From: Nanobdellota archaeon
Lineage (GTDB): Archaea > Nanobdellota > Nanobdellia > Pacearchaeales > GW2011-AR1
NCBI GenBank assembly: GCA_020430505.1
Contig: JAGQJT010000004.1
Span: forward strand, 576-64,575
Reading direction: 5' to 3'
Length of the DNA: 64,000 bases
The notes beneath the pieces were generated by a model. The model did no database searches, had not been told where the DNA came from, and worked only from the letters and a program-made list of their open reading frames with translations. Shown here piece after piece: positions 49,536 to 64,000 of this stretch (the stretch's first letter is position 1; each line of letters begins with the position of its first letter). The position numbers and the translations under genes were made by a program.

Positions 49536-50074
49536 TGAAAATGAAAGAAGAAACAGCAATAATAATAGAATATTTACCGAATGGATATCCTCTAGAAAGG
49601 AAAATGCTCCCTGTAGCACAAGCCATCGGAGACACTAATTTAACTCTTCTAGAATTGGTTCCTAGGAGAGGAGAAACACTTGAGATTGGAGAAAAGGTTT
49701 ACATCGGAGAAGGTAAGAGAGATAAAATTTCTTACATCCTTGGAAGACTCAAAAGAGAAAAATTAACTGAAACTGCAAAAAATCAATTGCAAGAAGTGAT
49801 CCAAGAACTTATAAAGAAATCTGAAGAAAGATTCGTAAACTTTTTTAATAAGGCAAACGCCATAAACAAGAGAGTTCACCAAATTGAGCTTTTACCAGGA
49901 ATTGGTAAGAAGCACATGCAAGAAATACTCAAGCAAAGGGAAGAAAAAGAATTCGAATCTTTTGAAGAGATGAAGAAGAGAATTCAGAATTTGCCCGACC
50001 CTGAAAAAGCAGTAGAGAAAAGAATTTTTCAGGAGTTAACAAACCTAGAAAGGTATAATTTATTCATAGGATAA
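49535..50074 (+). CDS. DUF655 family protein (helix-hairpin-helix)
   Basis: IIEYLPNGYP...; LLPGIGKKHMQEILKQRE. Confidence 0.7.
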   Translation: MKMKEETAIIIEYLPNGYPLERKMLPVAQAIGDTNLTLLELVPRRGETLEIGEKVYIGEGKRDKISYILGRLKREKLTETAKNQLQEVIQELIKKSEERFVNFFNKANAINKRVHQIELLPGIGKKHMQEILKQREEKEFESFEEMKKRIQNLPDPEKAVEKRIFQELTNLERYNLFIG

Positions 50075-50556
50075 TGGAAAAAACAGAACAAGAAAAAACA
50101 GATAACAAGAAGTATGATGATAGAGTAGTTAGAATTCTATCTAAAGACATAGAAGGTAAAATGAAGATTTACCCTGGATTGACAAAGGTAAAAGGAATAT
50201 CCTGGTCTTTCTCCAACTCAATTTGTATTGCATTAAAATTAGACAAGAATAGAAAAATTGGTTCTTTAACTGAAAGTGAAGTTAAAAAAATAGAAGATTT
50301 TGCAAAAAACCCTTCTACTTCAAAACATCTATTGAATAGAAGAAAAGACTTTACTTCTGGAGAAGACAAACATTTAATTGGAAGTGACCTTGAATTAACT
50401 CATGAATTTGATATTAAAAGATTAAAAAAAATAAAAACTTATAGAGGACTTAGACATACTGCAAACTTGCCTTCCAGAGGACAAAGAACTAAATCCAATT
50501 TCAGAAAGAACAGAAGAAAAGGTTCTGGGATAAAGAAAAAAACTGTAAAGAAATAA
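50074..50556 (+). CDS. rps13: 30S ribosomal protein uS13
   Basis: IKTYRGLRHTANLPSRGQRTKSN. Confidence 0.9.
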   Translation: MEKTEQEKTDNKKYDDRVVRILSKDIEGKMKIYPGLTKVKGISWSFSNSICIALKLDKNRKIGSLTESEVKKIEDFAKNPSTSKHLLNRRKDFTSGEDKHLIGSDLELTHEFDIKRLKKIKTYRGLRHTANLPSRGQRTKSNFRKNRRKGSGIKKKTVKK

Positions 50557-50557
50557 A

Positions 50558-51058
50558 ATGAAAAGAAAACATAAACAATACTCTCGACCAAAAAGACCTT
50601 TTGATAAAGTTAGAATTGATGAAGAAGCCCAGATAAAAAAAGAATTTGGTCTGAAAAATAAAAAAGAAATTTGGAAGGCTGAAGCAAGAATAAAATCAAT
50701 GAGAGAAAAGGCAAAAAAATTAATCTCTTCTTCTGCAGAGGAACAAAAAGCACTTTTTGACAGATTACAAAAAATTGGATTAAATGTGAACAGCATTGGA
50801 GAAGTTTTGTCGTTGGATAAAAAAGATTATCTAAACAGAAGATTGCAGACAATTCTTGTAAAAAAAGAATTGGCCACAACACCAAAATCTGCAAGACAAT
50901 TAATTGTACATCAAAAGGTATTGGTTGATGGAAAAATCCTTGATAGCCCTTCTTATATTGTTCCTGTAGAGATGGAGAACAAGATAACTCTAAAACCGAG
51001 CAAACTTAAAAAAACTAAAGAAAACCCAATAAAAGAAGGAGAAAGCGAAAATGCCTAA
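50558..51058 (+). CDS. rps4: 30S ribosomal protein uS4
   Basis: KQYSRPKRPFDKVRIDEE...; S4 domain near the C-terminus. Confidence 0.9.
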   Translation: MKRKHKQYSRPKRPFDKVRIDEEAQIKKEFGLKNKKEIWKAEARIKSMREKAKKLISSSAEEQKALFDRLQKIGLNVNSIGEVLSLDKKDYLNRRLQTILVKKELATTPKSARQLIVHQKVLVDGKILDSPSYIVPVEMENKITLKPSKLKKTKENPIKEGESENA

Positions 51059-51524
51059 GAAGAAAATTGAAGAACCCAAAGAAGAACAAGAAGTAGAAGA
51101 GGAAACTCAAGAAAAAGGAAATAATGAAGAAGGAAAGATTTCTCATGTTAAGGAAGCTGAAGCAATTTTGAATATTTATACATCGTTTAATAATACAATA
51201 GCACATGTCACAGATATGTCTGGAAGAACTCTTACTAAAGTTACAGGAGGAATGGTTACCAAACACAATCGTTTGAAAGCAAACCCCACTGTCGCAATGT
51301 TCATTGCTAAAAGAATTTCTGAATCTGTTAAAGACATGGGAGTTAAATCATTTTACATAAGAATAAGAACAAAAACAAGAAATCCTGCGCCAGGCCCTGG
51401 AGCAAGTGCAATTGTTAAGAGTTTGACAAGAGAAGGATTTAAAATTTTGAACATTCTTGATTCATCAAGAATTCCTAGAGGAGGTCCAAAGAAAAAGGGA
51501 GGACGTAGAGGAAGAAGGCCTTAG
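51051..51524 (+). CDS. rps11: 30S ribosomal protein uS11 with a ~35 aa acidic N-terminal extension
   Basis: NIYTSFNNTIAHVTDMSG...PGPGASAIVKSL. Confidence 0.9.
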   Translation: MPKKKIEEPKEEQEVEEETQEKGNNEEGKISHVKEAEAILNIYTSFNNTIAHVTDMSGRTLTKVTGGMVTKHNRLKANPTVAMFIAKRISESVKDMGVKSFYIRIRTKTRNPAPGPGASAIVKSLTREGFKILNILDSSRIPRGGPKKKGGRRGRRP

Positions 51525-51531
51525 GGCAAGG

Positions 51532-51539
51532 TTTATATA
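51532..51539 (+). promoter_or_regulatory. TATA-like box (tttatata), 21 nt before the rpoD ATG
   Basis: Spacing rule. Confidence 0.4.
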
Positions 51540-51560
51540 ACCTATTAAAAAGATAATAAA

Positions 51561-52274
51561 ATGCAATCAATAAATAAAACAGATAACAAATTAACCTTTT
51601 CAGCAAAAATTAGTGAAAGTTTAGCTAACGCTTTGAGAAGAAGCGTTAATTCAATTCCAACTTTGGCAATAGATGAAGTTGAAATCTCAAAGAATGATTC
51701 TCCTCTTTATGATGAGACTGTTGCACACAGAATGGGACTAATTCCTTTGAAGATGCAAAAGTCGTTTAAAGAAAAAGATGAAGCTGTTCTAAAATTGAAA
51801 ACAAATAAACCTGGAACAGTTTATTCCAAAGATTTTAAAGGCGATATCGAGGTAGTCTATGGAGAGATCCCAATTACCGTTTTAGGAGATGACACTGAGA
51901 TTAATGTCAAAGCAATCGTAAGACTCGGAAAAGGAAGTGAACATGCTAAGTTTTCTCCAGGGTTGATTTATTACAGAAATGCTTCTGAAATCACAATGGA
52001 TAAAGAATTTTTTAATAAAGTGAGGGAAACTTTTCCTGAGAATGAAGTCAAGGAAAAAGGAGATAAGATAATCATTGAGGATAATCTAGAAAAACCAATG
52101 GTTGATTTTTGCGAGGGATTAGCATTAAGAAATAAGAAAAAAGTTGAAGTCAAAGACACAGATGAGTTGATCATTAGTGTAGAAGGCTTTGGGCAAATGA
52201 AAGCTAAAGATATGTTTAAAGAATCATTAAAAATATTAAAGAAAGACCTAAATGATTTTGCAAAAAAAATATAA
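51561..52274 (+). CDS. rpoD: DNA-directed RNA polymerase subunit D (Rpo3)
   Basis: LANALRRSVNSIPTLAIDEVEISKNDSPLYDETVAHRMGLIPL. Confidence 0.85.
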   Translation: MQSINKTDNKLTFSAKISESLANALRRSVNSIPTLAIDEVEISKNDSPLYDETVAHRMGLIPLKMQKSFKEKDEAVLKLKTNKPGTVYSKDFKGDIEVVYGEIPITVLGDDTEINVKAIVRLGKGSEHAKFSPGLIYYRNASEITMDKEFFNKVRETFPENEVKEKGDKIIIEDNLEKPMVDFCEGLALRNKKKVEVKDTDELIISVEGFGQMKAKDMFKESLKILKKDLNDFAKKI

Positions 52275-52277
52275 AAC

Positions 52278-52288
52278 TTTTTTTTTTT
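52278..52288 (+). terminator. oligo-T tract (11 T), archaeal-type terminator after rpoD
   Basis: taaaacttttttttttt begins 4 nt after the stop codon. Confidence 0.5.
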
Positions 52289-52326
52289 AGTTTAGAGTAC
52301 TGTATATATTTAACAGTTGGTGAAAC

Positions 52327-52368
52327 AAAAAAAATATCCTCAACAAAAAGTTGAAGAGGATATTTTTT
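52327..52368 (-). terminator. intrinsic (hairpin plus U-run) terminator for the minus-strand gene ending at 52375; flanked by an A-run and a T-run, so potentially bidirectional
   Basis: aaaaaaa-ATATCCTCAAC-aaaaa-GTTGAAGAGGATAT-ttttt; 7 nt downstream of the stop. Confidence 0.7.
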
Positions 52369-52374
52369 GATTGT

Positions 52375-53268
52375 TTAATCTTTTTTCAAAATATAACATT
52401 TAATAGAATGGATTACTCCCTTATCAGTTTTGAAATAATTAGGGGGGCCCAAACGGAATCCCACAACTTCCTCTGTGAGAAGATTTTCAGGAATCTGGCT
52501 TATAATATGGGCATATGTTGGTTGAAAAATATCTGCCCCCCCTTCCCCAAATTCTTGGTAGATTTCGATAGATTCCTTTTCAACAAATTCCCCTTCTGCG
52601 GGAAAATCTGAATTAATCTTATGTAGATTTGAGCCGTTAATACGCAACCAAATTCCTATAGTGAGGTATGGCTTAGTTAAATCTCCAGGATCTATAAAGG
52701 CCAATCCTTTTTCATGCCAGTATATCGCAGGCCGGATTTTGTCTTTAAATTTTTCTGCCTTTTCCAAAGAAACTGGTTTAATCAAACCTTCAAAAACGGG
52801 AAGAATTTCTTTCTCAAGCTCCTCCGATTTCTCATAAAGGATTATTGGTAAAGATTGATACTCTCCCCTCATGATTACCTCAGCATCATTTTCTGGATCA
52901 AGTGAAAATGCCACAACTTTTTCAGCAATATCTTGGGGAATTTGGGCCATCACTTCTGCCATTGTCACTTTACAAAAACCGTAGTAGCCTCCAACCTTTA
53001 CATAAATATCCAGTTTTGAGAGAATTTTCAATCCTTCAGCCTTCTCTTGCCAAACAGCATCTTTATCAAAATTGAATGCTTCTTTACGAGGATTTGCATT
53101 AGAAAATTGGTAGAATAATTCAAAAAACCGGGGATCCTTTTCCATGGTATGATGAATTTTTCCATCTGTTCCTTTCATAGCATGATTCACAAATCTTATT
53201 CGATCCATCATCTCTTTGAGATGATTATCTGAAATTTTGGGAATTGGATTTTTTGTTTTTGTTTCCAT
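52375..53268 (-). CDS. hypothetical protein with an apparent internal duplication
   Basis: aaggag SD. The segments VTMAEVMAQIPQDIAEKVVAFSLDP and PTYAHIISQIPENLLTEEVVGFRLGP look like two copies of one module. Confidence 0.65.
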   Translation of the reverse strand: METKTKNPIPKISDNHLKEMMDRIRFVNHAMKGTDGKIHHTMEKDPRFFELFYQFSNANPRKEAFNFDKDAVWQEKAEGLKILSKLDIYVKVGGYYGFCKVTMAEVMAQIPQDIAEKVVAFSLDPENDAEVIMRGEYQSLPIILYEKSEELEKEILPVFEGLIKPVSLEKAEKFKDKIRPAIYWHEKGLAFIDPGDLTKPYLTIGIWLRINGSNLHKINSDFPAEGEFVEKESIEIYQEFGEGGADIFQPTYAHIISQIPENLLTEEVVGFRLGPPNYFKTDKGVIHSIKCYILKKD

Positions 53269-53307
53269 AATAAACTCCTTTCCATTTTTTAATTTTAGAA
53301 TTAAGTT

Positions 53308-53604
53308 TTAAGCAAGCTTTAGCTCTTCGCTAAGATTGGCCTTTAAAAAATTCTCAACCAATTCTTCATCAAGCTTATCGAATTTTATCTCTTTAAAGAG
53401 GTTTTCAAAAGAAGATTCTTCTTTTACCTCAAGAGGCTCATTTTCCATATGCTTCATTGCTTTATCCACCTCCACCCCAAAATAAAAACCTCCTCCCGGG
53501 CAGAATGCAAGAGCTTTCCTTTCATTTTCTTTTTCAAGAACTACAACCAATTGAGAGGCACATCCTCCTGTAGGAAGTTGTGCAAAATAAATTAGATTTT
53601 TCAT
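53308..53604 (-). CDS. hypothetical protein (98 aa) downstream of small membrane peptide P1
   Basis: Begins MKNL, like the gene after P2. No motif recognised. Confidence 0.55.
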   Translation of the reverse strand: MKNLIYFAQLPTGGCASQLVVVLEKENERKALAFCPGGGFYFGVEVDKAMKHMENEPLEVKEESSFENLFKEIKFDKLDEELVENFLKANLSEELKLA

Positions 53605-53682
53605 AACATTTTATTTTTAATTGTCAATAATTTAAAAAATTAATAAAAAAGCCAAAATAGCTAAAATTAAAGCTATTAGCTG
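53594..53682. repeat. ~90-nt repeat, copy 1 (about 88% identical to 57975..58064)
   Basis: Hand alignment. The repeat covers the 3' TM-coding part of the small peptide, the 27-28 nt spacer and the first four codons (MKNL) of the next gene. Confidence 0.85.
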
Positions 53683-53739
53683 TAAGTAAAATAGGGACTT
53701 TGAAAAAGTCTCTTTGGAATCCTTTTTGGATTCTTTCAT
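53632..53739 (-). CDS. small membrane peptide P1 (35 aa)
   Basis: Below the track threshold. My translation gives MKESKKDSKETFSKSLFYLQLIALILAILAFLLIF*. AGGAGG lies 5 nt upstream. Paralogue of P2. Confidence 0.6.
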   Translation of the reverse strand: MKESKKDSKETFSKSLFYLQLIALILAILAFLLIF

Positions 53740-53782
53740 AACAACCTCCTTTTTATTTTTTAAGTTTATAATTTATTTAATT

Positions 53783-55726
53783 TTAATAATATTCAACGAT
53801 TAATTTTGGTCTGTTAATAACTTCAGGATTATCGCTACTGAAGATTAAACAATAAGTGTCATTAGAGACCGTACTTAGAGCCAGACCATTATTTTGAGAA
53901 GGATCTAAAATCCAAGATTGAACTACTGAAGAAATATCAATCGAATACCAAGATTTAATCCCTTCAAAAGTAAATTCAAAAGAAGTGAAGTAATTTTCTG
54001 AAGAGGGAAAATTCTCTCCATTCACAGAATTCTCCTCCCATGGGGAAGTTACCTTTGAAATTCTTGCAATAGCAAGGTTAGGATAAGGCCCTAATCCAAA
54101 TCCATATAACTCCATTTTTGCAGAAACAATTGTTGAATTTTCTGGAATTTCATCAAGAGGAAATTGAATCAACATGCTTCTCCAACCCTCAGAACCTCCA
54201 GTAACATATTTTGAAATCTCCATTTCTTCTGTAGTTCCATCTCCATAATAAGTGGTATTCCCACTTACCCAATTTACCAATCCTGCAGAAGCGTCCTTTC
54301 CCTCTGGACCTGGTTGGAGGATAATGGAATTATTATTTGGAGTGACAATGTTCATTCCTCTTGTTTTCTCCCCAATTTTGCCGCTAGGATCTTTTGCTTG
54401 AACCTTAACGACATAATATGCCTTATTAGGAAAAGAATGTATCATGGTTTTTTCATAAACCCAATCAGTGTCCCAAACCCCATTATCCTCAAAGTCCCAT
54501 CTCACTTGACATTGGTCTTCTGGAACTTCATCCACAACAGCAGCTTTAAATGAGATTTCATTGCCCACATACCAAGGTTCAGGAGTATCTACTTGGATAA
54601 ACACTGTAGGAGGATTATTTGTTCCTCCTATCTGACCACTTAAAATTTGCTCATCGTAATTTATTAGATTATAATTTTTATCTGCAAGAGTTTTACTCAG
54701 GATTTTAATTTTTGCTCCTACTCCAATTTTTAATTTTCCATCGAGGTTCCAATTAATTGAACCCCCTGAACTTGAAGCATAAACCCCTAACCCTCCATCT
54801 GCATAAGCATATGGGCCTGCAACATCATAAAGAAATATATTGAATGCTGCACTTGCATAAGCTTCAAGAGAGAGGTTTGATTGCAAACTAGGATTAAATC
54901 CAGAAAAATCAAAATCCAACGATTTTATCATGTCCCACTTATTGTTTTCGTATTTTAATCCCCCTTGAAGTTCGAAGGATTGATTAACTTTTGAAGAACA
55001 GACTGAGATGCTTCCGTCTGCTTTTAGAACTACTTCTATAGAAGGAGTGATGTATAACGGAACTATTCCGATCGTTCCGGCAAGAAATCCTGGAAGATTT
55101 TGGCTCCAAATTATTTTTTCTTTATCTTGAAGATAAAATGAATCGTTTGCGCTTATTTGAAGCGAGGATTCTTCAGAAAGAATATTGATTATCAAAAACT
55201 TTTTTAGCTTCCATTTCTCTATATCAATTTCTCCATCAACAGAGTAATTGAAAAAAAATTGGCCATTTATAAAAACCCCATTTGAAATCTGGATATTATT
55301 GAAATTAAAACCAAAATCGAATCCTTTTTTCTCAATAAAGGTGACTCCTTCCGGGAGAGAAGATTTATACTTTTCTGAGGGTTTTATCTCTTTTGAAAAA
55401 GAAAGAGAACCATCTTTAACAACTTCTTCGATTGAAGCTTGTTGAGTGTGAATTTTTCCCCCAGAAACAGATTTTACTTTCTTAAGAAAGCCCATAGGAG
55501 TTGAAGAAGAAAATCCTGTAACAATAAAATCTCCAACAGATATTCCAGAAGTTCCGGATAATGAGATCGTTCCTTCGTCAGAATAAGACAAAACTTCTCC
55601 TGAAGAAATCTCAAATAATTCCTCACCAGAAGGTCCCACAGGAATTCCTTCCTTTTCAAAGGAATTTTCTTTTTTGCAACCAAAAAGGGCCACAAATGTT
55701 AATACGATTAAAACTAATTTTTTCAT
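53783..55726 (-). CDS. lipoprotein with a PKD domain and a C-terminal DNRLRE-type domain
   Basis: Lipobox LFGC. PKD-like VRWDFEDNGVWD. C-terminus: LIQFPLDEIPENSTIVSAKMELYG...VTSPWEENSVNGENFP...RPKLIVEYY. Confidence 0.75.
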   Translation of the reverse strand: MKKLVLIVLTFVALFGCKKENSFEKEGIPVGPSGEELFEISSGEVLSYSDEGTISLSGTSGISVGDFIVTGFSSSTPMGFLKKVKSVSGGKIHTQQASIEEVVKDGSLSFSKEIKPSEKYKSSLPEGVTFIEKKGFDFGFNFNNIQISNGVFINGQFFFNYSVDGEIDIEKWKLKKFLIINILSEESSLQISANDSFYLQDKEKIIWSQNLPGFLAGTIGIVPLYITPSIEVVLKADGSISVCSSKVNQSFELQGGLKYENNKWDMIKSLDFDFSGFNPSLQSNLSLEAYASAAFNIFLYDVAGPYAYADGGLGVYASSSGGSINWNLDGKLKIGVGAKIKILSKTLADKNYNLINYDEQILSGQIGGTNNPPTVFIQVDTPEPWYVGNEISFKAAVVDEVPEDQCQVRWDFEDNGVWDTDWVYEKTMIHSFPNKAYYVVKVQAKDPSGKIGEKTRGMNIVTPNNNSIILQPGPEGKDASAGLVNWVSGNTTYYGDGTTEEMEISKYVTGGSEGWRSMLIQFPLDEIPENSTIVSAKMELYGFGLGPYPNLAIARISKVTSPWEENSVNGENFPSSENYFTSFEFTFEGIKSWYSIDISSVVQSWILDPSQNNGLALSTVSNDTYCLIFSSDNPEVINRPKLIVEYY

Positions 55727-55752
55727 AGTAAATTTTATTTTTAATTAATAAT

Positions 55753-56445
55753 TTATTTTAGAACAAAACTAATTGGAATGTTATATTGCACCCTTACAGG
55801 TTTTCCTCTCTGCTTTCCGGGGCTCCACTTGGGCATTGCTTCTACAACTCTTATTGCTTCCTCGTCACACCCTCCTCCAATTCCTCTTAGTAATCTCACA
55901 TCTGTAACCGAACCATCTGTTTCAACTACAAAAGTTAAAAACACCCTTCCGGAAATATTTGCTTCTCTTGCGACCTTAGGATATTTTAGATTTTGAGCAA
56001 GGTATTCGTGAAGACCTTTTTCTCCTCCGGGAAACTCTGGCATTGATTCCACTACAATAAAAATTTGTGATTCTTCTTCAGTTTCTTCCTCTTCTTCAAA
56101 AATTTCTTCTTGAGGGATGTACTCCTGAATCACTGTATTTTGATCTGCTTCTACATTAATTTCCAAATCATCTTCAACTTCAAGATCATTACTTACGACA
56201 TCAATTCTAGTTGGTTGAGTGACTAGAGGAGGAGGGGGAGGTTTTGCCTCTTGCTCCGTGATAGGGATGAACTCTTCAGGAATATCTTCAGTTTGCACTA
56301 TGAAGATTTCTTTCTCTCCTGAATCATGGGATTTAATTTCAAGTCCTCTCCAGATTAAAAAAAGGACAATGATTAATCCAATCTCAAAGAAAACTGGTTT
56401 CCACCGTTCGAGATCTGCTTTTTTAGATTTTCTTTTGTCTTTCAT
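55753..56445 (-). CDS. tonB: energy transducer TonB-family protein
   Basis: N-terminal TM segment, PPPPP linker, acidic region. C-terminal domain: MPEFPGGEKGLHEYLAQNLKYPKVAREANISGRVFLTFVVETDGSVTDVRLLRGIGGGCDEEAIRVVEAMPKWSPGKQRGKPVRV. Confidence 0.85.
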   Translation of the reverse strand: MKDKRKSKKADLERWKPVFFEIGLIIVLFLIWRGLEIKSHDSGEKEIFIVQTEDIPEEFIPITEQEAKPPPPPLVTQPTRIDVVSNDLEVEDDLEINVEADQNTVIQEYIPQEEIFEEEEETEEESQIFIVVESMPEFPGGEKGLHEYLAQNLKYPKVAREANISGRVFLTFVVETDGSVTDVRLLRGIGGGCDEEAIRVVEAMPKWSPGKQRGKPVRVQYNIPISFVLK

Positions 56446-56493
56446 TGTTTTAATTTTTAAAGTTATTAAAATTTAATTTATTTCATAATAATA

Positions 56494-57120
56494 TCAAATC
56501 CATTTTTTCAAAGGAATTTTTTTATTCAACCTATATATGACCAAGGGAAGCCAAACAGGTATACAACCTAAAAACATATACGAAGGAAGAAGAGAATATT
56601 CTAGATTCCAATTTGGAATCACCAAAAGCATAAGGCCATAACCCAATCCAAAAACAAACCATAAATAAGGCCTATCTGTATGGGGTTTGATCCAAGCATT
56701 TCTTATGGCGGGAATCAAACCAAAAAAATTGGCAACTAGAGATAAAACCAAAACCCATTTTGATCTTTCTGGATCTTCAAGGAATACCAACCAGGAAATT
56801 AAAGCTCCGATTGAAAGAGTGCCGCATAGATAATCCCAAAAAGAGACTTTTCTATTTTTTGATTTTAATAAAACCAATAGCATTATAGTTGTTGAACCAA
56901 TTAGTCCTGCAAAAGGCGCCAAAAGATTCAAACCCAACCCTCCAGAGGAATAAGAAGAAAAAAGAATTACAAAAGAACTTAGGGAAAAAATTACCCAAGT
57001 CACAATTGGAAGTTCGATCTCTTTCAAATTGGAGAGAGTTCTAATTGAAGGGACATATGCAATGAAGATTGTCAAAAAGGAAATCATTGCAAGCTCTAAA
57101 CCGCTATCAAATTTTTCCAT
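56494..57120 (-). CDS. integral membrane protein (about 6 TM), unknown family
   Basis: Hydrophobicity pattern only. Confidence 0.55.
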   Translation of the reverse strand: MEKFDSGLELAMISFLTIFIAYVPSIRTLSNLKEIELPIVTWVIFSLSSFVILFSSYSSGGLGLNLLAPFAGLIGSTTIMLLVLLKSKNRKVSFWDYLCGTLSIGALISWLVFLEDPERSKWVLVLSLVANFFGLIPAIRNAWIKPHTDRPYLWFVFGLGYGLMLLVIPNWNLEYSLLPSYMFLGCIPVWLPLVIYRLNKKIPLKKWI

Positions 57121-57161
57121 AACATTTTATTTTAGTTTATAATTATGTGAATTTCAAATTG

Positions 57162-57238
57162 CTCCCTTGACAGGATTCGAACCTGCGACCTCCAGCTAAT
57201 CAATGATACTGGGCTCTAACCAACTGTGCTACAAGGGA
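57162..57238 (-). tRNA. tRNA-like gene B1 with a non-canonical anticodon arm (4-5 bp stem, 11-13 nt loop)
   Basis: Reverse complement: TCCCTTG TA GCAC AGTTGGTTA GAGC C CAGT-ATCATTGATTA-GCTG G AGGTC GCAGG TTCGAAT CCTGT CAAGGGA G. The acceptor helix is extendable to 9 bp. Confidence 0.5.
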
Positions 57239-57267
57239 GCCTCCTACCTGCAGGATAATGAAAGATT

Positions 57268-57456
57268 TTATGCTGATGTTATTTCATCGGCCACACTAAA
57301 GTTTTTTTTGAAATACTCTTCCTTTAGCATTCCCACTCCTAAGTCTGCAACATTTTTGGCAATATGGGAATTACCTCCACTTTTTACAGATGCGACATAA
57401 ACCTTTTTCCAGAATTTCCGAATTTCTTTATCGGACAAAGTTTTTTTGATTGACAT
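57268..57456 (-). CDS. hypothetical small protein (62 aa)
   Basis: aaaggag SD; MSIKKTLSDKEIRKFWKK... Confidence 0.5.
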   Translation of the reverse strand: MSIKKTLSDKEIRKFWKKVYVASVKSGGNSHIAKNVADLGVGMLKEEYFKKNFSVADEITSA

Positions 57457-57487
57457 ATTAAACTCCTTTCTATTTTTTAGTTTATAA

Positions 57488-57985
57488 TTAATTTATTTCA
57501 GGCAGATCGTCCTGGTTTTTATGAGGTCTCAAATGACGCACTTCTTTTGTTTCAGGAGAAATTCTGAAAACCAGAAAGTTATTGTTATTTGATTTAATTA
57601 CCATAAAAGATTTAGGATGCGATTTCGATGGACCAGTGAGACCTTTTACCTTACCAAAAAATTCGATTGGATCAGCTCCAATTAAACGATAAACTTTTTC
57701 TTGCTCAAAGAACCTAATGTCTGTTCCGTAAGCACATTTTTCTTCAGAGAATTTTTCAAAGACATTTTCAAAAAAATCTTCAAAATTTTCCGTTGCGACA
57801 AAAGTTACATTTCTCCATAGAACGTCTTTTAATTTTTCTAAAGAAGAACAAACTCCATATAAACCCATTAAATTTCTCAAGGATTCTTTGGTTTTTTCTT
57901 CGATTAAAGAATCAAAACCCAAGAGGGTCTTTCCCTTAAGTAATTCAAAAAGGTCTTCTAAACTGATTAACTCAAGATTTTTCAT
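57488..57985 (-). CDS. DLPEI-tail family protein, paralogue C
   Basis: Shares three elements with 62739..63218: the N-terminus (LEDLFELLKGKTL), the core EKVYRLIGADPIEFFGKVKG, and the C-terminal KNQDDLPEIN. Confidence 0.65.
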   Translation of the reverse strand: MKNLELISLEDLFELLKGKTLLGFDSLIEEKTKESLRNLMGLYGVCSSLEKLKDVLWRNVTFVATENFEDFFENVFEKFSEEKCAYGTDIRFFEQEKVYRLIGADPIEFFGKVKGLTGPSKSHPKSFMVIKSNNNNFLVFRISPETKEVRHLRPHKNQDDLPEIN

Positions 57986-58064
57986 AACATTTTTTATTTT
58001 AATTGTTAATAATTTAGGAAATTAAGAAAAAAGCTAAGATAGCTAAAATTAAAGTTATTAGCTG
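57975..58064. repeat. ~90-nt repeat, copy 2 (see 53594..53682)
   Basis: Hand alignment. Confidence 0.85.
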
Positions 58065-58133
58065 AATTAAGAAAAGCGCTTTAGAAAATCCTGAAGAATC
58101 TTCAGCTTCATTTTTTGAATTTTTTGTTTTCAT
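58014..58133 (-). CDS. small membrane peptide P2 (39 aa)
   Basis: MKTKNSKNEAEDSSGFSKALFLIQLITLILAILAFFLIS*. The track ORF 58014..58244 extends spuriously into the tRNA-like gene. Confidence 0.55.
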   Translation of the reverse strand: MKTKNSKNEAEDSSGFSKALFLIQLITLILAILAFFLIS

Positions 58134-58174
58134 TTTTTTAAATTTTGAATTAATTATTAAATAAGAATCAATTG

Positions 58175-58258
58175 CTCCCTTGGCAGGATTCGAACCTGCG
58201 ACCTCTTTCTTGGAAATCAGTGAAAAAAGAAAGCACTCTACCACTGAGCTATAAGGGA
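58175..58258 (-). tRNA. tRNA-like gene B2 with an expanded anticodon arm (5-7 bp stem, 15-19 nt loop; contains a canonical Gly-UCC loop TTTCCAA preceded by 12 extra nt)
   Basis: Reverse complement: TCCCTTA TA GCTC AGTGGTA GAGT G CTTTC-TTTTTTCACTGA-TTTCCAA-GAAAG AGGTC GCAGG TTCGAAT CCTGC CAAGGGA G. Confidence 0.5.
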
Positions 58259-58308
58259 ACCTCTTTTAATTTAAAAGAAATTTAAATAATCCTAATTAAA
58301 GGTTGGAT

Positions 58309-59988
58309 TTACTTGATTAAAATTTTCTGGCTTTTTCCAGAATTTTTATCAATAACCAAGTAAATTTCTGAATTTAGAGTTTGGTCTTCACGGATTTCTT
58401 TTATATTTTGATATATTTTTCCGTTCACGACCTGTCCCATTAAATTCAATAATTGAAATTTTCCAGAAGACAATTCCTGCATGTCCATTTCATCGGTTAT
58501 AATCTCTGAAGATTTAGAGTTATCTTCAAAAATTATTCTGAAACGAACAGGATTGTCTAAAGGAGTATGAGAAAAAGAGTAATCAGAAGCGGTTAAATAA
58601 TGATATGAATGTGTTTTCGTATCAAACAGTTTCACATCGAAATCTCCATCAATTTCATTTTCCCAAATACTTATTTCAGAAGTTCCGGAGAAATCACAAG
58701 CCAACCCTAATGTTGCCATTGTACCATCAGAATAATCATCAAGAGTATTTATTAGCATATTCTGACTAGCATCGCAGATATAAACCTCGCTTAAAGTTTC
58801 TGAGGGTAACCATGGAACATCTGCTTGCAGATCATACCCGAACGTAACTAATGCGTGATTATAAAATCGAAACATTACTTCATTTGAGTAGGGGTTTGTT
58901 TCATCTCCCCAATTCACTTTAAAAGAGATATAATCTCCATCGGTAGGAGATTCTAGAACTCCTTTCAAAATCCCTGATGAGATAATATCTTGTCCGACTT
59001 TCCAATAAAAATCGCTTCCAAAATACTTAGCGGAATTATTAACTCCCAGAGAAGAAGAAGTTGAGCCGGCTTGGCCAATAAAAGCTTGCCTTACTGCAAT
59101 GTACCTATCCGCCGTCCCTTCTGCAGGAAAAATAAAGAAAGGAGATTTATGATAGACATACGCCCCAAGATTAGAGTTATTTGGATCTCCATTCCAAACA
59201 AAATAAGTTGTTGATGTGGAATTCTTGGTCCATCCTCCTGATGCATCCCAATCAAGAGTAGTGGGGTAAGGATTTCCCATTAGGTTCCAGCCTTCATCTT
59301 GATAGGAGAGAGTTCCTGAAGAATAACTTCCGGTTTTGAACAATCCAGAAACAGTTATCTCTGAAGGACTTTTTGTTGCATCACCAGAATAACTAGAACC
59401 TTTAACTTTCTCTTTTCCTTCCAAAAATTCAGGTAAATCTGAAGAAGAATTTGAAAAAACAGCAAAACCTTCAAAACTTCCCAGGGGGTAATTTGGATTT
59501 GTCAAATATTCCCAAGAATTGGTAGGTTCATCAAAAGTTTTTACATACATTCCTGAAAAAATCCCCAATAGTTGATTTTCTACAGGAACAATTATGAACT
59601 CCCACTGGTCCTGATCAAAAGCAATTTTATAAGTGCCATACGCTCCAGTTCCATTGTAAAAGAAAAAGGCTCCTGATTCTAAAACAAGTCTTTCAGGATC
59701 ATCTCCTTCGGAAAAAGTGCCATCAACCTTTAAACCAATTCCTGATTGAACTGTTAAAACAGCTCCAGAATTTATCGTGAGGTTATTAAGCGTAACATCG
59801 CTGCTGTTTATCACAGGATCATTTGTTACATTTGGTATTACCACATTGGCTCCTGAAGATGGAACAGAATTTGTGTTCCAATTTGAGGCAGTATGCCAAT
59901 CAGTACTTGTTGATCCGTCCCAAGTTTGTGCGACGGAAATTGCTGTTATTAAAAACAGCGCCGAAATTAAACTAATAAGTTGTTTCAT
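58309..59988 (-). CDS. secreted protein with a T9SS-type C-terminal sorting tail
   Basis: Signal peptide ...ITAISVAQ. N-terminus TWDGSTSTDWHTASNW. C-terminus ...LLNLMGQVVNGKIY...EIYLVIDKNSGKSQKILIK. Confidence 0.65.
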   Translation of the reverse strand: MKQLISLISALFLITAISVAQTWDGSTSTDWHTASNWNTNSVPSSGANVVIPNVTNDPVINSSDVTLNNLTINSGAVLTVQSGIGLKVDGTFSEGDDPERLVLESGAFFFYNGTGAYGTYKIAFDQDQWEFIIVPVENQLLGIFSGMYVKTFDEPTNSWEYLTNPNYPLGSFEGFAVFSNSSSDLPEFLEGKEKVKGSSYSGDATKSPSEITVSGLFKTGSYSSGTLSYQDEGWNLMGNPYPTTLDWDASGGWTKNSTSTTYFVWNGDPNNSNLGAYVYHKSPFFIFPAEGTADRYIAVRQAFIGQAGSTSSSLGVNNSAKYFGSDFYWKVGQDIISSGILKGVLESPTDGDYISFKVNWGDETNPYSNEVMFRFYNHALVTFGYDLQADVPWLPSETLSEVYICDASQNMLINTLDDYSDGTMATLGLACDFSGTSEISIWENEIDGDFDVKLFDTKTHSYHYLTASDYSFSHTPLDNPVRFRIIFEDNSKSSEIITDEMDMQELSSGKFQLLNLMGQVVNGKIYQNIKEIREDQTLNSEIYLVIDKNSGKSQKILIK

Positions 59989-60052
59989 GAATTTAAAATT
60001 TTTTAATTTAACAAAAGTTTTTTACAGAACAGCTACTTTTTGAAAGATGCTA

Positions 60053-60214
60053 CTAATCAAGTCCCCTAAACTTGTGTACACATCTCCAACCTAGCGAAGG
60101 TTGGATTTTTTCTGCTTTAATATTGAATAAAACCTTCTCTGAAGAAAAATTCACAAGAAGATTTACTTTAATAAAAAAGCAGAAAAATAAAATGATAACT
60201 AAAATAAAAAACAT
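60053..60214 (-). CDS. possible 53-aa membrane peptide (doubtful)
   Basis: My translation gives MFFILVIILFFCFFIKVNLLVNFSSEK... Weak SD, and it contains a strong hairpin. Confidence 0.2.
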   Translation of the reverse strand: MFFILVIILFFCFFIKVNLLVNFSSEKVLFNIKAEKIQPSLGWRCVHKFRGLD

Positions 60215-60245
60215 TGTTTTACCTTTTTAGTTTGTAATTAATTTA

Positions 60246-60794
60246 TTAGTTAATTGGCTTGAATTTTAGGTCTTTTGGGGAGTTGAGAATTAGCAATAAC
60301 TTGTCCACAAGAGCATAAACATTTTTTTCAAATAAAGGAAGTTTTTCTTTTTCATATTTCAAAAGAAAATACCCATTGTAAATGTTCATCCCATTTTGTA
60401 TGAAAGAACTTCTTGTCAGATCAGCGGAAAAATTAATGCAGCTATCAGTCTTGTCACCTAAAACAAGATGTTTCATAGAGACCTCCCAAACAGTTGCCTC
60501 CAAATAAACAGAATCTTTTATGGTGTATTGAATCTCAAAAGACCTTCCATGAGCATCTTCAAAATCCAACTTTTTCTGAAAGTCTGTACCAGCATAGATT
60601 TTTGCATACCCTATTCTTTCTGCTAATTTAACTAGTTCAATTATCTTCCAATTGGGAGAATCAGCCTTAATCTCATCAAAAGAAAAATCCCTTAATTTAG
60701 AAACTTCTTTTGGAGTTTCTTTTTTTAGAAAATCTTGAAAAAGAAAAGCTGAACAAAGTAGTATAGAAAAAATCAAAAAAATTCTTTTTTCCAC
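60246..60794 (-). CDS. secreted or lipoprotein, unknown function
   Basis: GTG start with aaaggag SD; signal LIFSILLCSAF. Confidence 0.6.
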   Translation of the reverse strand: MEKRIFLIFSILLCSAFLFQDFLKKETPKEVSKLRDFSFDEIKADSPNWKIIELVKLAERIGYAKIYAGTDFQKKLDFEDAHGRSFEIQYTIKDSVYLEATVWEVSMKHLVLGDKTDSCINFSADLTRSSFIQNGMNIYNGYFLLKYEKEKLPLFEKNVYALVDKLLLILNSPKDLKFKPIN

Positions 60795-60816
60795 AATAAA
60801 CTCCTTTCTATTTTAA

Positions 60817-60863
60817 GTTAGAAAATAAATTAATTTATTGAATTTCCGGAAGATCTTCTTGGT
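60817..60863. repeat. 47-nt exact repeat, copy 1 (identical to 62721..62767)
   Basis: gttagaaaataaattaatttattgaatttccggaagatcttcttggt. Spans the C-terminal EDLPEIQ codons, the stop and the palindrome AATAAATTAATTTATT. Confidence 0.95.
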
Positions 60864-61329
60864 CTTTCGAAAGTTCTAAGCATGAAAAATAATCCTCGTC
60901 TCCAGAATTAAAAATAAGAGAACCTCCTCTTGTTAATAAAACAAGATGGTGTTCCCAAAAACTAAACCCACAGCCACATTCCGAAATTACTTCTCTTGTG
61001 TTAATGTATCCTAAAACCTTTCCGGAAAAAATAATGGGATCTCCTTCGGAAAAACGATAAACTTTTCCTTGTTCAATTTCAAAAGAATAGAGTTCTTGAG
61101 CACATCCAACTCCTTCTCCTTCAAGAACATTTTTTCTAATCTCCTCTTCTGAAGAAGTAGCAAAAAAGATCCCTTCTTCTTTCAATGCGCGAATGAGCGC
61201 AACTTTTAGACCAGAATCTTCTGAAAGAGTGGTTGGAGAAAAAGGGTATCCCGAACTTCCACCAAGTAGAATTTTTCATTCGCAAAGTTTTAGAACTTCA
61301 TCAAAGGATAATTTTTTTAAATGATTCAT
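60835..61329 (-). pseudogene. DLPEI-tail family paralogue B, interrupted by an in-frame TGA (61276..61278)
   Basis: From ATG 61329 (aaaggag SD): MNHLKKLSFDEVLKLCE*KILLGGSSG...ALIRALKEEGIFF... continues in frame into track ORF 60835..61185. Ends KDQEDLPEIQ. Confidence 0.6.
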
Positions 61330-61432
61330 AACAAACTCCTTTATTTATTAAGTGAGAAAATTTTTTGAATTAAAAAAGAACAGCTTCGCCGAAATTCATT
61401 GAAGCTGTTCATAAAAAAGGAATGGTTAATTA

Positions 61433-62701
61433 TTAGAAAGGACGTCTTTTACTGAGAAGAAAATCAAAGAGCATTCTGCCAAGACCTCCAGACCCTGCAA
61501 ATGCTTGTATAGAAGACCCTTCATCTTCTCCCACAGAAAGATTACAGACTTTTCCAATTTCCTTATTGCAGCTTCCCCAGAGAGTCATTTTTCCTGAACG
61601 GCCTTCATACTTTGGAGCAGCACCAATGATTTCCAATACAGCACCAGGACAATAAGGATGCTCCACTTTTTCGCCAGGTTTTCCTCCGAGAGATTCGCAA
61701 AGCACAGTGTTGGGATCGACATAAAAATGGTTGTCCTGAGCAAAAACTTTCACTCCTCCATTCTCCTTCAGCTTTTCCTGCAGAGCATCAGATTCAGATT
61801 TTAAAGTGAAGAAATCTCCAAGATTTTGATTTTTATTATAATCGTCGGAAAGATCTTGAACTTCGAGATTGCCTGGCTTTTGGAACCACAAACAATCAAA
61901 ACCGGAAGTCACTTCTGAAGGTCCGACTCCTTTGACCACATAAACTCCTCCTGGTCCATAAACTTCTTCTCCGGCTTTGAAACCAAATGATTCACAAGCT
62001 TCATCAGAGGGGTCTAAGAAAAAGGGATGTCCACTAACAGAGATAGCAGGAACTCCTCCATTGTTTTCCAATTCTTCCTGCTTTGCTTTAATCTCTCCCA
62101 CAATCCGGAATCCTTGTTCGACAAGGTTCAACTTATCTACATCAGAGGAGTATAAACCTATCTTCCCAGACTCGGTCTCAAGAAACAAAATTTCTGGTCC
62201 AACAAGCAAGTCCTCTCCGGTAGTTTTATGCCTTGCAGGAATAGGTCCGACACCCAAAACAAGGGATTCAATTCCTCCTTTTTCGATTTTTGTGCCCGCT
62301 TTGAAACCAAACTTCAGGCAAGTTTCATCGAAAACATCCACATAAACAACTTGTCCGTCGGGCATTTCAATTTTACGCCCTCCATTTTCCGCAAGTTCTT
62401 TTTGCTTAGCTTCGAGTTCCCCCACTCTCCGAAATCCGACTTCTCTCAAATTAACATCTTTAGGCTTACTGGAATACCTTACGACATCTCCTGATTCATT
62501 TTTGAACCAAACCACATCATGGTCTCCAATATGTTCTCCAGTAGAATTACAAGGTGCGACTCCGATAACGGTACACTTCGTGCCGTATGGATCAATAAGT
62601 TCCTCATCAGGTTTTACTCCCAATTTTGCACATGCTTCCTCAGAAACATTTACAGTGATTTCATGACCACTTTTTACGATTACTTTTTTTGTTTTTTCCA
62701 T
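61433..62701 (-). CDS. protein made of four tandem ~100-108 aa repeats, unknown function
   Basis: Each repeat ends in ENGG/NNGG and contains V(D/N)x(S/F)DExCxxFGFKAG...V.GVGP.... Confidence 0.7.
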   Translation of the reverse strand: MEKTKKVIVKSGHEITVNVSEEACAKLGVKPDEELIDPYGTKCTVIGVAPCNSTGEHIGDHDVVWFKNESGDVVRYSSKPKDVNLREVGFRRVGELEAKQKELAENGGRKIEMPDGQVVYVDVFDETCLKFGFKAGTKIEKGGIESLVLGVGPIPARHKTTGEDLLVGPEILFLETESGKIGLYSSDVDKLNLVEQGFRIVGEIKAKQEELENNGGVPAISVSGHPFFLDPSDEACESFGFKAGEEVYGPGGVYVVKGVGPSEVTSGFDCLWFQKPGNLEVQDLSDDYNKNQNLGDFFTLKSESDALQEKLKENGGVKVFAQDNHFYVDPNTVLCESLGGKPGEKVEHPYCPGAVLEIIGAAPKYEGRSGKMTLWGSCNKEIGKVCNLSVGEDEGSSIQAFAGSGGLGRMLFDFLLSKRRPF

Positions 62702-62720
62702 AATAAATTTAAAATTTTAG

Positions 62721-62767
62721 GTTAGAAAATAAATTAATTTATTGAATTTCCGGAAGATCTTCTTGGT
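62721..62767. repeat. 47-nt exact repeat, copy 2
   Basis: See 60817..60863. Confidence 0.95.
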
Positions 62768-63218
62768 TTTCGGAAAGCCCAATACGCGATAAACTTTCTT
62801 GATAAATCTGGGTAAAGAAAAGATCTCCATTTAAGCATTTTAATACAACAAATGAATTGCCCTTCTCTATTTGATAAATTCCTTCAACCTTTGCTGAGAA
62901 AACCAAAGGGTCTCCTTGGATGAAACGATAAATTTCTCCTTGTTCAAGAATTGCCAGAGGAGAAATGCCTACACAACTTCCTTCATAAACCTCTTCAATT
63001 ACCTGCGCAAGAAAACTATCTTCATTTGATATAAAAACAGAATTTGAATTTATAGAAATTTCTTCCTCAAAAAAGGAATAAGTGTGAGGAATAGTGCACA
63101 TCTGATTAGATAAATCTTCTTTTGAGACTAGATAAGAAAAAATATCAAAATCGTATAGTTCCTTTCCTTTGATCATTTCCAAAATTTCTCTTTTGGAAAT
63201 CTTTCTAAAACCTTGCAT
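62739..63218 (-). CDS. DLPEI-tail family protein, paralogue A
   Basis: aaaggag SD; ...REILEMIKGKELY..., GEIYRFIQGDPLVFSAKVEG, C-terminal ENQEDLPEIQ. Confidence 0.65.
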   Translation of the reverse strand: MQGFRKISKREILEMIKGKELYDFDIFSYLVSKEDLSNQMCTIPHTYSFFEEEISINSNSVFISNEDSFLAQVIEEVYEGSCVGISPLAILEQGEIYRFIQGDPLVFSAKVEGIYQIEKGNSFVVLKCLNGDLFFTQIYQESLSRIGLSENQEDLPEIQ

Positions 63219-63253
63219 ATTGAACTCCTTTCTATTTTAATTAATAATTAATT

Positions 63254-63451
63254 TTATTTTTTCTTTTTGAAAAGTCTAATTTTCGCTTTATCGGCCATCA
63301 AAGATTTATCTCCTTTTTGGACCACACCTTTGCGAATACATTTGTCTGCTTTGTGATCTCCTGGAAGAGTCGGAGCTTTTCTTGTAAAAGAACAGGAAGA
63401 AAGGAAAACGCTCAAAAGAGCAATGAACAAAAATTTTACGATTGTTTTCAT
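63254..63451 (-). CDS. small lipoprotein (65 aa)
   Basis: MKTIVKFLFIALLSVFLSSC lipobox; basic tail. Confidence 0.55.
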   Translation of the reverse strand: MKTIVKFLFIALLSVFLSSCSFTRKAPTLPGDHKADKCIRKGVVQKGDKSLMADKAKIRLFKKKK

Positions 63452-63529
63452 TTTTAAAAAATTTAGTTAAACAATTTATTTAATTAAAGGATATATTTTG
63501 ATTTCAATTTAATTGAACTATTATTTTCT

Positions 63530-63601
63530 AAGCAAAAATAGCAGGCCTCCAAATAAATGACTTTAATCAAAGTGTTTGATTACTTGTCTTGGAGACCTGC
63601 T
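63530..63601 (-). terminator. long compound hairpin followed by a U-run on the minus strand (terminator or attenuator-like)
   Basis: AGCAGGCCTCCAA (63540-52) pairs with TTGGAGACCTGCT (63589-601), 12/13 bp. Inner hairpin AATCAAA-gtg-TTTGATT. The minus strand continues CTATTTTTG. Confidence 0.45.
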
Positions 63602-63902
63602 TAATTAAAAGGATTATTTTACAGGATCTGAAATCCTGTGCATAAAAACTAAGAAATTTTTCATTGTGTTTTAATTAAACTTCAACTTTGATTAGACTAG
63701 TTTTTTAGGTCACTTGGACCAAACTCAGCCTAAACATCTTAAACGAATTCCTCGATGTATCATATGCTTCGGTATTTTGGAGATCAATGAGTTTTTTATT
63801 TATCTCAAAGAACTCCAATTAAAAGATTTTTCAAATTTTTCATTTTTGTTTCTCCTGTAATTTATTTGTTAATAATTTTATTTAATTTCAAAATTCAATT
63901 TG

Positions 63903-64000
63903 TCAAACACTCAACAAAGGATTTGCATAATTTGAAGAGAAATTGAAGAATACCTCTTCCATGAGTTCTTCAAGTTTCTCAGCCGGATAACGGGAAGTTG
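63903..64000 (-). CDS. 3' end of an unidentified CDS entering from beyond the window
   Basis: My translation gives ...TSRYPAEKLEELMEEVFFNFSSNYANPLLSV*. Too short to classify. Confidence 0.3.
   Translation of the reverse strand, partial: TSRYPAEKLEELMEEVFFNFSSNYANPLLSV

Follow-up and report, generated by a model that had tools for sequence, protein, structure and literature searches.

The 64,000-nucleotide (nt) window analyzed here comes from the genome of a Nanobdellota archaeon (G000, the source genome; the window is G000:C26:576-64575) and carries on its minus strand two genes shaped like transfer RNAs (tRNAs), B1 (57162..57238) and B2 (58175..58258). We are fairly confident that both belong to a tRNA-derived family, do not decode, and have no intron; the family consists of nine tRNA-shaped genes in four of the five genomes of the genus (G000, G002, G003, and G004; G001 to G004 are the other four genomes of the same genus). 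Alignment of the nine copies from the four genomes showed that the four cloverleaf stems are maintained by compensatory change and that the anticodon loop alone varies in length, from 6 to 19 nt.

Stem pairs were counted in a hand-parsed alignment with eight distinct stem sets. Standard pairs made up 98.2% of the stem cells, changes on both sides of a pair were found at 14 of the 21 stem positions, and only 3 of 189 stem cells were unpaired across the copies. Neither the pairing value nor the compensatory value was reached in any of 2000 column shuffles, although this significance is somewhat overstated because the sequences are related. The anticodon loops of the nine copies measured 6, 6, 7, 7, 7, 7, 9, 11, and 19 nt. 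The four members in G004 have the loops TTCATAC, TTCATAC, TTGCCAG, and a 9-nt TTTGTGTAA; the single G002 member has the 6-nt loop CTTCAA (8 nt when a T.T pair is opened), and the single G003 member has the 6-nt loop TTTTAT. Two of the G004 copies, G004_C31a and G004_C31c, have the same body and the same first part of the trailer; the loop is their only difference, TTCATAC versus TTTGTGTAA. Other family features were also constant: U1-A72 was found in 9/9 copies, G73 in 8/9, and a trailer starting with CAA in 9/9.

An earlier note on this DNA had proposed the bounds and the minus strand of B1 and B2, and both were reproduced: the Rfam family RF00005 matched the same bounds, and ARAGORN called both genes. 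The 77-nt B1 scored 42.8 bits and the 84-nt B2 scored 53.3 bits, and a third paralogue beyond the window edge, B3 (G000:C26:67664-67735, minus strand), scored 71.9 bits, all above the RF00005 gathering score of 29 bits. In a search of the stretch with all Rfam families, only RF00005 matched B1 and B2 at E <= 1. The identities tRNA-Sec and tRNA-Pyl were considered and ruled out by the missing long variable arm, the normal T stem, and the RF00005-only matches. U1-A72 and G73 are present in both genes as previously described, and flanking bases can indeed extend the acceptor stem to 9 bp in both, via a T.G pair in B2; across the family, the -1:73 pair alone recurs (8/9).

The anticodon arms separate B1 and B2 from decoding tRNAs, which have a 7-nt loop with U33 and a purine at position 37. 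The B1 loop, ATCATTGATTA (57197..57207, minus strand), has 11 nt between the CCAGT/GCTGG stem strands, and the B2 loop, TTTTTTCACTGATTTCCAA (58210..58228, minus strand), has 19 nt inside a 5-bp CTTTC/GAAAG stem, that is, a 7-nt loop with 12 extra bases, in agreement with the earlier description of both arms. Aligning the genes to RF00005 left 11 loop bases of B1 and 15 of B2 unaligned. The ARAGORN labels of B1 and B2 shifted with the mode, from Met(cat) and Glu(ttc) without introns to Ile(gat) and Gly(tcc) with introns. Canonical tRNAs of G000 cover all 20 amino acids, so B1 and B2 are extras. The motif TCAYTGATT was confirmed in both loops; a match of 8/9 positions between two such loops has a chance probability of about 0.01 (p ~0.007-0.013 by shuffling), and the window shows no enrichment of the motif (5 occurrences versus 3.6 expected).

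Over 131 nt of gene and trailer, B1 is 79% identical (blastn/alignment) to the CAT-loop member G004_C3, which shows B1 to be the counterpart of the sister-genome CAT-loop copy with a 4-nt insertion. Every 4-nt deletion that restores a 7-nt loop in B1 gives ATCATTA, ATGATTA, or TTGATTA, and the loop reads as a CAT-type ATCATTA with an insertion of TGAT or an equivalent register. The D arm of B1 had been described as normal, which was not the case, as it has an A13xA22 mismatch and lacks nucleotide 26. The acceptor stem of B2 has an A7xC66 mismatch.

The 3' halves of B1 and B2, previously reported as identical, are nearly so: 57157-57192 and 58170-58205 share 97% identity over 36 nt, with one position different. 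The repeat search gave the copies as 57157..57193 in B1 and 58170..58206 in B2 (both minus strand), running from the last anticodon-stem base through the variable loop and ending 5 nt (CAATT) beyond G73. The first 24 nt of B2 are identical to the 5' half of B3 and its 3' half matches that of B1; B2 is therefore a mosaic, which accounts for its A7xC66 mismatch. B3 itself is intact, yet its 7-nt loop CTTTTTA has U37.

The family appears only within this genus. In a blastn comparison of window positions 50000-64000 with 40 relatives, matches covered only 50000-52336, which encodes ribosomal proteins and rpoD, apart from short hits to the B1 region that came from genomes of the same genus, and the six members outside G000 were obtained from the regions around these same-genus matches. 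The exact 3'-half pattern had 0 matches in 60 relatives. With a degenerate pattern of the T arm, acceptor strand, and CAA, no copy was found outside this genus in 201 genomes of the order. A stricter pattern gave 0 matches in metagenome contigs, and a looser one applied to viral, genome, and metagenome collections returned no family member among its matches, which were for the most part tRNA-Asn and tRNA-Gln of phages or bacteria with a U1-A72/G73 acceptor, plus other tRNA-like oddities. The family bodies resemble G000 tRNA-Arg(UCU) and the tRNA-Asn of bacteria or phages about equally closely. In G001 the genomic island that houses the family in this genus is present and no family copy was found in it.

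The alignments also showed that each copy is tied to a conserved trailer of ~41 nt, which extends as far as the start codon of the island gene that follows. In 8/9 copies the next same-strand open reading frame (ORF) starts 40-53 nt downstream, and the preceding gene ends 29-124 nt upstream of the copies, with all neighbours on the same strand. The B1 trailer, CAATTTGAAATTCACATAATTATAAACTAAAATAAAATGTT (57121..57161, minus strand, 41 nt), is at the same time the leader of an ORF for a 208-amino-acid membrane protein (56494..57120, minus strand) that starts 41 nt past the end of B1, and it is kept up to the ATG in G004. Between G000 and G004, whose core proteins are 56-84% identical, the trailer is conserved to the ATG and the ORFs diverge past it. 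B2 likewise has a 41-nt trailer (58134..58174, minus strand), the leader of the gene for P2, a 39-amino-acid membrane peptide (58014..58133, minus strand), which confirms the 41-nt distance reported earlier for B2 and P2. P2 is a paralogue of the 35-amino-acid peptide encoded at 53632-53739. The two peptide genes and the spacer after them are duplicated (53594-53739 versus 57975-58133, 81% over 98 nt), and a tRNA-like gene lies upstream of the second copy only.

Promoter- and terminator-like signals were compared between the family and the canonical tRNA genes of G000. A TATA-like box resembling CTTTTAAAT at -40 to -31 was found in 20/34 canonical tRNAs versus 1/9 family members (p=0.02, with copies that are not independent), and TTT just downstream in 23/34 versus 3/9, which is not significant (p=0.12).

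The host is a DPANN-type ultrasmall archaeon and not a bacterium. Its assembly has 745,721 bp in 31 contigs and is ~90% complete. Archaeal markers include EndA (PF01974, 97.7 bits at C11:23215-23475), RtcB (542 bits, on C22), and ribosomal protein S3Ae, and an archaeal RNase P RNA and tRNase Z are encoded as well. The initiator tRNA and the Gln tRNA of G000 start with A1-U72. The earlier impression of a bacterial-looking context, in which archaeal introns would be odd, was thus mistaken.

B1 and B2 lie in a hypervariable island. The island part of the window (52300..64000) has all its genes on the minus strand, mostly for orphan secreted or membrane proteins. In total the island spans at least 18 kb, from 52275-64000 of the window on to the end of C26 (69116), and resumes at G000:C6:1-2300. 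It splits the archaeal S13-S4-S11-rpoD / L18e-L13-S9 cluster, is specific to the genus, and carries a different set of genes in each member genome. In G002, G003, and G004, rpoD is likewise followed by an opposite-strand block of small genes for secreted, lipoprotein-like, or membrane proteins, few of which are shared; the far flank in G002 and G003 holds a conserved gene for a HerA-like ATPase, a 152-165-amino-acid gene, tRNA-Leu(CAA), and L18e-L13-S9, which in G000 are found on contig C6. The short G004 contig covers the near part only (rpoD, then the island with a family member). In three other genera, a tRNA-Leu gene directly follows rpoD. We considered an assembly chimera at ~52.3 kb and rejected it, as the same junction occurs in G002, G003, and G004 and the tetranucleotides are within the range of the genome. 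Because sister genomes have the same rpoD/island junction, the switch at 52.3 kb is a true insertion common to the genus, and the change from archaeal to "bacterial-looking" sequence along the contig is real biology.

Bacterial-type domains in the island include TonB_C and DNRLRE/CBM96, with an outer-membrane beta-barrel in a relative, and a strong Shine-Dalgarno-like AAGGAGT precedes some island genes at a density above that of the rest of the genome. No hallmark of phages or integrases turned up in the island in searches against PHROGs, Pfam, and NCBIfam. An integrase (PF00589) or remnant was likewise not found in the island of G000 or in those of the four other genomes of the genus; the matches, on C6 and C8, lie outside the islands. 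A single-copy tyrosine recombinase ~3 kb past the far flank is conserved in every member of the genus and looks like a housekeeping XerA. A second tyrosine-recombinase gene, at G000:C8:9918-10745, may be a sign of a further mobile element; its 13-kb contig has no tRNA gene. Among the island proteins, the 165-amino-acid neighbour had no homologue among 5.8 billion proteins, and a 422-amino-acid protein had no phage match. A scaffold of another assembly, L073 (ENA scaffold WANG18-1_SAMN08389185_METAG-scaffold_45252), carries the stretch from P2 through the 165- and 62-amino-acid genes and B1 to the 208-amino-acid gene in a form identical to the window. At L073:1-80, compared with window 58134-58217, unrelated AT-rich sequence replaces B2 and its trailer upstream of the P2 start, and L073 is either a population variant without B2 or a scaffold-end artefact.

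The earlier note had listed, among other options, tRNA-like RNAs that belong to the repeated gene modules next to them, and this is the reading we favour most, on the basis of the conserved trailer and the 40-53-nt ORF spacing in 8/9 copies. In the mechanism we propose, the family copies would be transcribed together with their neighbours, since they lie 29-124 nt from the preceding gene in a one-directional array and mostly lack a tRNA promoter. RNase P and tRNase Z, reading the acceptor/T-arm and the elbow only, would then cut the copies out of island transcripts. Such excision would split the transcripts and define the 5' terminus of the messenger RNA that follows, making the copies natural "t-elements", and the anticodon loop, irrelevant to cleavage, would be free to drift. 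The reading as a whole, of genus-restricted, non-decoding tRNA-derived genes in the island with the RNase P/tRNase Z mechanism included, is put forward tentatively, with roughly as much doubt as confidence on our part.

Cleavage of t-elements by RNase P and RNase Z is known from plant mitochondrial mRNAs (PMC1920247) and from engineered Haloferax volcanii constructs in which t-elements flank CRISPR RNAs (PMC6546412). B1 and B2 resemble these elements in being tRNA-shaped, non-decoding, and in the same orientation as their neighbours; they have the tRNA fold with an intact acceptor/T-arm and D/T elbow, which is all that is needed, and no usable anticodon, and the enzymes are encoded in G000. 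They differ in that the family keeps all four arms, including a well-paired anticodon arm, and is multi-copy, with a conserved trailer, in one island; the Haloferax case is also an engineered construct, unlike the genomic family here. Another related case is tRNA-Other of Bacillus cereus, a pseudo-tRNA that flanks a genomic island and is expressed within a larger RNA (PMC3399842). It shares with B1 and B2 the association with an island, the lack of a translation role, and a proposed function as a structural element in a longer transcript; in contrast, it is bacterial, single-copy, and backed by experimental phenotypes, whereas the present family is archaeal, multi-copy, variable in loop length, and known from sequence alone.

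Several observations weigh against this proposal. The promoter contrast is weak and the terminator contrast is not significant, and the conserved trailer could itself hold the promoter of the next gene. The element is dispensable, as the G001 island has no copy. Three of the G004 copies have fully canonical 7-nt loops (CAT, CAT, and GCC) and could be working tRNAs. Finally, the three defects of B1 and the stem mismatch of B2 are what would be expected of decaying copies.

The last point leads to the strongest alternative, namely that B1, B2, and their relatives are decaying duplicates with no RNA function: pseudogenes of accessory tRNAs borne by the island (of CAT, GCC, and TTT types), in which gene conversion keeps the arms alike and the odd loops are the first visible damage. 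This would agree with the damage in B1 (D-stem mismatch, absent nucleotide 26, 4-nt loop insertion) and the A7xC66 of B2, with the drop in Rfam score from ~70 bits in the G004 CAT copy and B3 to 43-53 bits, with the coverage of the 20 amino acids by canonical tRNAs elsewhere in the genome, with the island of G001 that has no copy, and with the mosaic structure of B2, which fits gene conversion. However, random damage should not be confined to the loop: the stems offer 42 bases and the loop only 7, yet all five abnormal copies changed in loop length and just 3 of the 189 stem cells are unpaired. Compensatory double changes at 14/21 stem positions across species, two otherwise identical copies that differ in the loop alone, and the conservation of the trailer and ORF spacing across species also argue against decay. 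We therefore regard decay as a serious possibility but a rather unlikely one.

A second alternative is that the copies are recombination sites, that is, att-type or cassette-boundary sites for shuffling of the island, with the anticodon arm as the crossover, which would explain both the loop indels and the mosaics. The 36/37-nt direct repeat of the 3' half bounds a 0.9-kb segment of three genes, B2 joins a 5' half from B3 to a 3' half from B1, and the copies occur in a hypervariable island whose chromosomal position is fixed, with a conserved tyrosine recombinase ~3 kb beyond its far flank. L073, which joins the P2 gene to unrelated sequence exactly at the end of the B2 trailer, is a weak lead in the same direction, although it is one short scaffold end and possibly an artefact. 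Against this, none of the five islands contains an integrase or a remnant, and the recombinase close by, a single-copy gene, is conserved throughout the genus members, as a housekeeping XerA would be. The copies are also complete cloverleaves instead of 3' fragments, and their anticodon stems are perfectly paired, which a DNA crossover scar would not need. The tRNA fragments or att repeats of integrative elements (SSV-type and others; for mis-annotation of tRNA fragments, see PMC9897764) are comparable in that a tRNA 3'-half forms a direct repeat in a variable island; the difference is that B1 and B2 are both full-length with their own paired anticodon arms, neither being truncated, in islands with no integrase or remnant. 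The earlier suggestion of degenerate duplicates marking integration sites thus held in part: the genes are duplicated and mosaic in an island that lacks an integrase, but they are complete cloverleaves whose stems show compensatory changes, and not fragments. We consider a role as recombination sites distinctly unlikely.

Archaeal pre-tRNAs with very short introns were also proposed earlier; removal of 4 nt from B1 would give a tRNA(CAU or GAU), and removal of 12 nt from B2 would give tRNA-Gly(UCC). Archaeal introns are recognized as a bulge-helix-bulge (BHB), and we took the geometry from tRNA-Ile(UAU) of G000: the anticodon stem, a 4-bp helix of positions 32-35, a bulge of 36/37 and intron base 1, the opposite helix strand, a bulge of the last two intron bases and 38, and then the stem. 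All junctions that leave a 5-bp stem and a 7-nt loop were scanned; a looser scan was too permissive in AT-rich sequence. The positive controls, tRNA-Ile(UAU) and tRNA-Trp, gave a clean, mismatch-free BHB, with 3/3 bulges and 4-5 bp in the outer helix. B1 gave no BHB with a flanking outer helix at any junction restoring 7 nt (outer helix <=1 bp), and the 12-nt removals from B2 gave only poor BHB-like fits, in which the central helix has a mismatch and the outer helix a single base pair.

Insert length points the same way. A BHB intron needs at least ~11 nt for its central helix strand and bulge bases; by this measure, the 12-nt insert of B2 is borderline and the 4-nt insert of B1 fails, being too short for a 4-bp central helix, so it cannot be a BHB intron. 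Spliced B1 would moreover have U37, the sibling loops of 6 and 9 nt are beyond repair by splicing and would remain unaccounted for, and the genome already has Gly(UCC), Met, and Ile tRNAs. The likeness to archaeal BHB-intron pre-tRNAs consists of an archaeal host with EndA and RtcB, extra bases in the anticodon loop, and true introns in five other tRNA genes of the genome, which have anticodon-loop inserts of 46-100 nt (Trp, Tyr, Ile(UAU), Glu(CUC), and one more long Rfam match); the difference is that B1 and B2 have neither BHB nor HBh' at a 7-nt junction and have inserts of 4 and 12 nt, with 6 or 9 nt in the loops of siblings. The ARAGORN intron mode (Ile(gat), Gly(tcc)) would also suit this explanation, as would a similarity between the B2 insert and a stretch of the tRNA-Ile(UAU) intron, 11/12 bases of which are shared (P ~0.002); this value is post hoc, and we gave the unexplained match little weight. 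Overall, the very-short-intron idea is not supported by the BHB search and is very improbable. The tRNA-Ile(UAU) gene used as a control (G000:C28:27948-28070) has a 48-nt intron with a perfect hBHBh' at 37/38, and G000 appears to read AUA with this UAU tRNA.

The last alternative is that of working tRNAs with expanded anticodon loops, which would read an in-frame UGA through the shared TCA or decode four-base codons. The TGA in question (61276-61278, minus strand) lies in the middle paralogue of a 160-amino-acid family, where both other paralogues have Gly, and ORF 60835-61329 is open under table 25; the G002 copy can also be drawn with an 8-nt loop containing CUUCAAU. It is, however, the sole in-frame TGA among 22 island genes, two of which end in TGA, and genetic codes 25 and 4 were rejected, as genome-wide ORF lengths give no support for stop-codon reassignment. 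The tRNA-like genes offer no usable UCA anticodon, and no consistent TCA or YTG register with U33 and purine 37 in a 7- or 8-nt loop was found. Known frameshift-suppressor tRNAs have loops of 8-9 nt, and the 11- and 19-nt loops are far above this size. We regard decoding through expanded loops as scarcely credible.

If excision by RNase P and tRNase Z is true, the family would be a natural case of archaeal tRNA punctuation outside organelles, and it would show how the rapidly changing surface-protein islands of ultrasmall, host-dependent archaea turn surplus tRNA genes into modules for expression or processing. At its broadest, the idea is that a DPANN genus carries a natural t-element array, in which cloverleaves serve as portable 5' modules (tRNA-like gene, 41-nt leader, start codon) that punctuate a surface-protein island and in which the loop, freed from decoding, turns over faster than the remaining molecule and, in view of the two G004 copies that differ there only, may even be replaced on purpose; we offer this wider picture as a possibility with considerable doubt. 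tRNA-like and pseudo-tRNA elements are already known as such, and the searched literature held no account of an archaeal family that has several copies, varies in anticodon-loop length, and is under fold-preserving selection within a surface-protein island. For annotation, the Met, Glu, Ile, or Gly labels that depend on the mode of the finder would corrupt tRNA inventories and inferences of the genetic code.

Two further classes of tRNA-like genes were observed among the sequences from the pattern searches. One class, seen in L012:960-1063 (an Algoriella metagenome-assembled genome), L009, L016, and L030, starts with TCCCTTGTGGCGRAATGGTAGACGC, followed by a 60-110-nt insert, a T arm, CAAGGGAGC, and a conserved CAAAAACAACATTATTATGA, and was missed by ARAGORN. 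The other is found on phage contigs from IMG/VR and metagenomes (L006:300-394, L008:7369-7460, L023, and L040), where a tRNA-like gene directly follows tRNA-Glu and tRNA-Ile(tat); it has the same TCCCTTR...YAAGGGAG acceptor, an aberrant D region, and a long hairpin or 10-nt loop in place of the anticodon arm.

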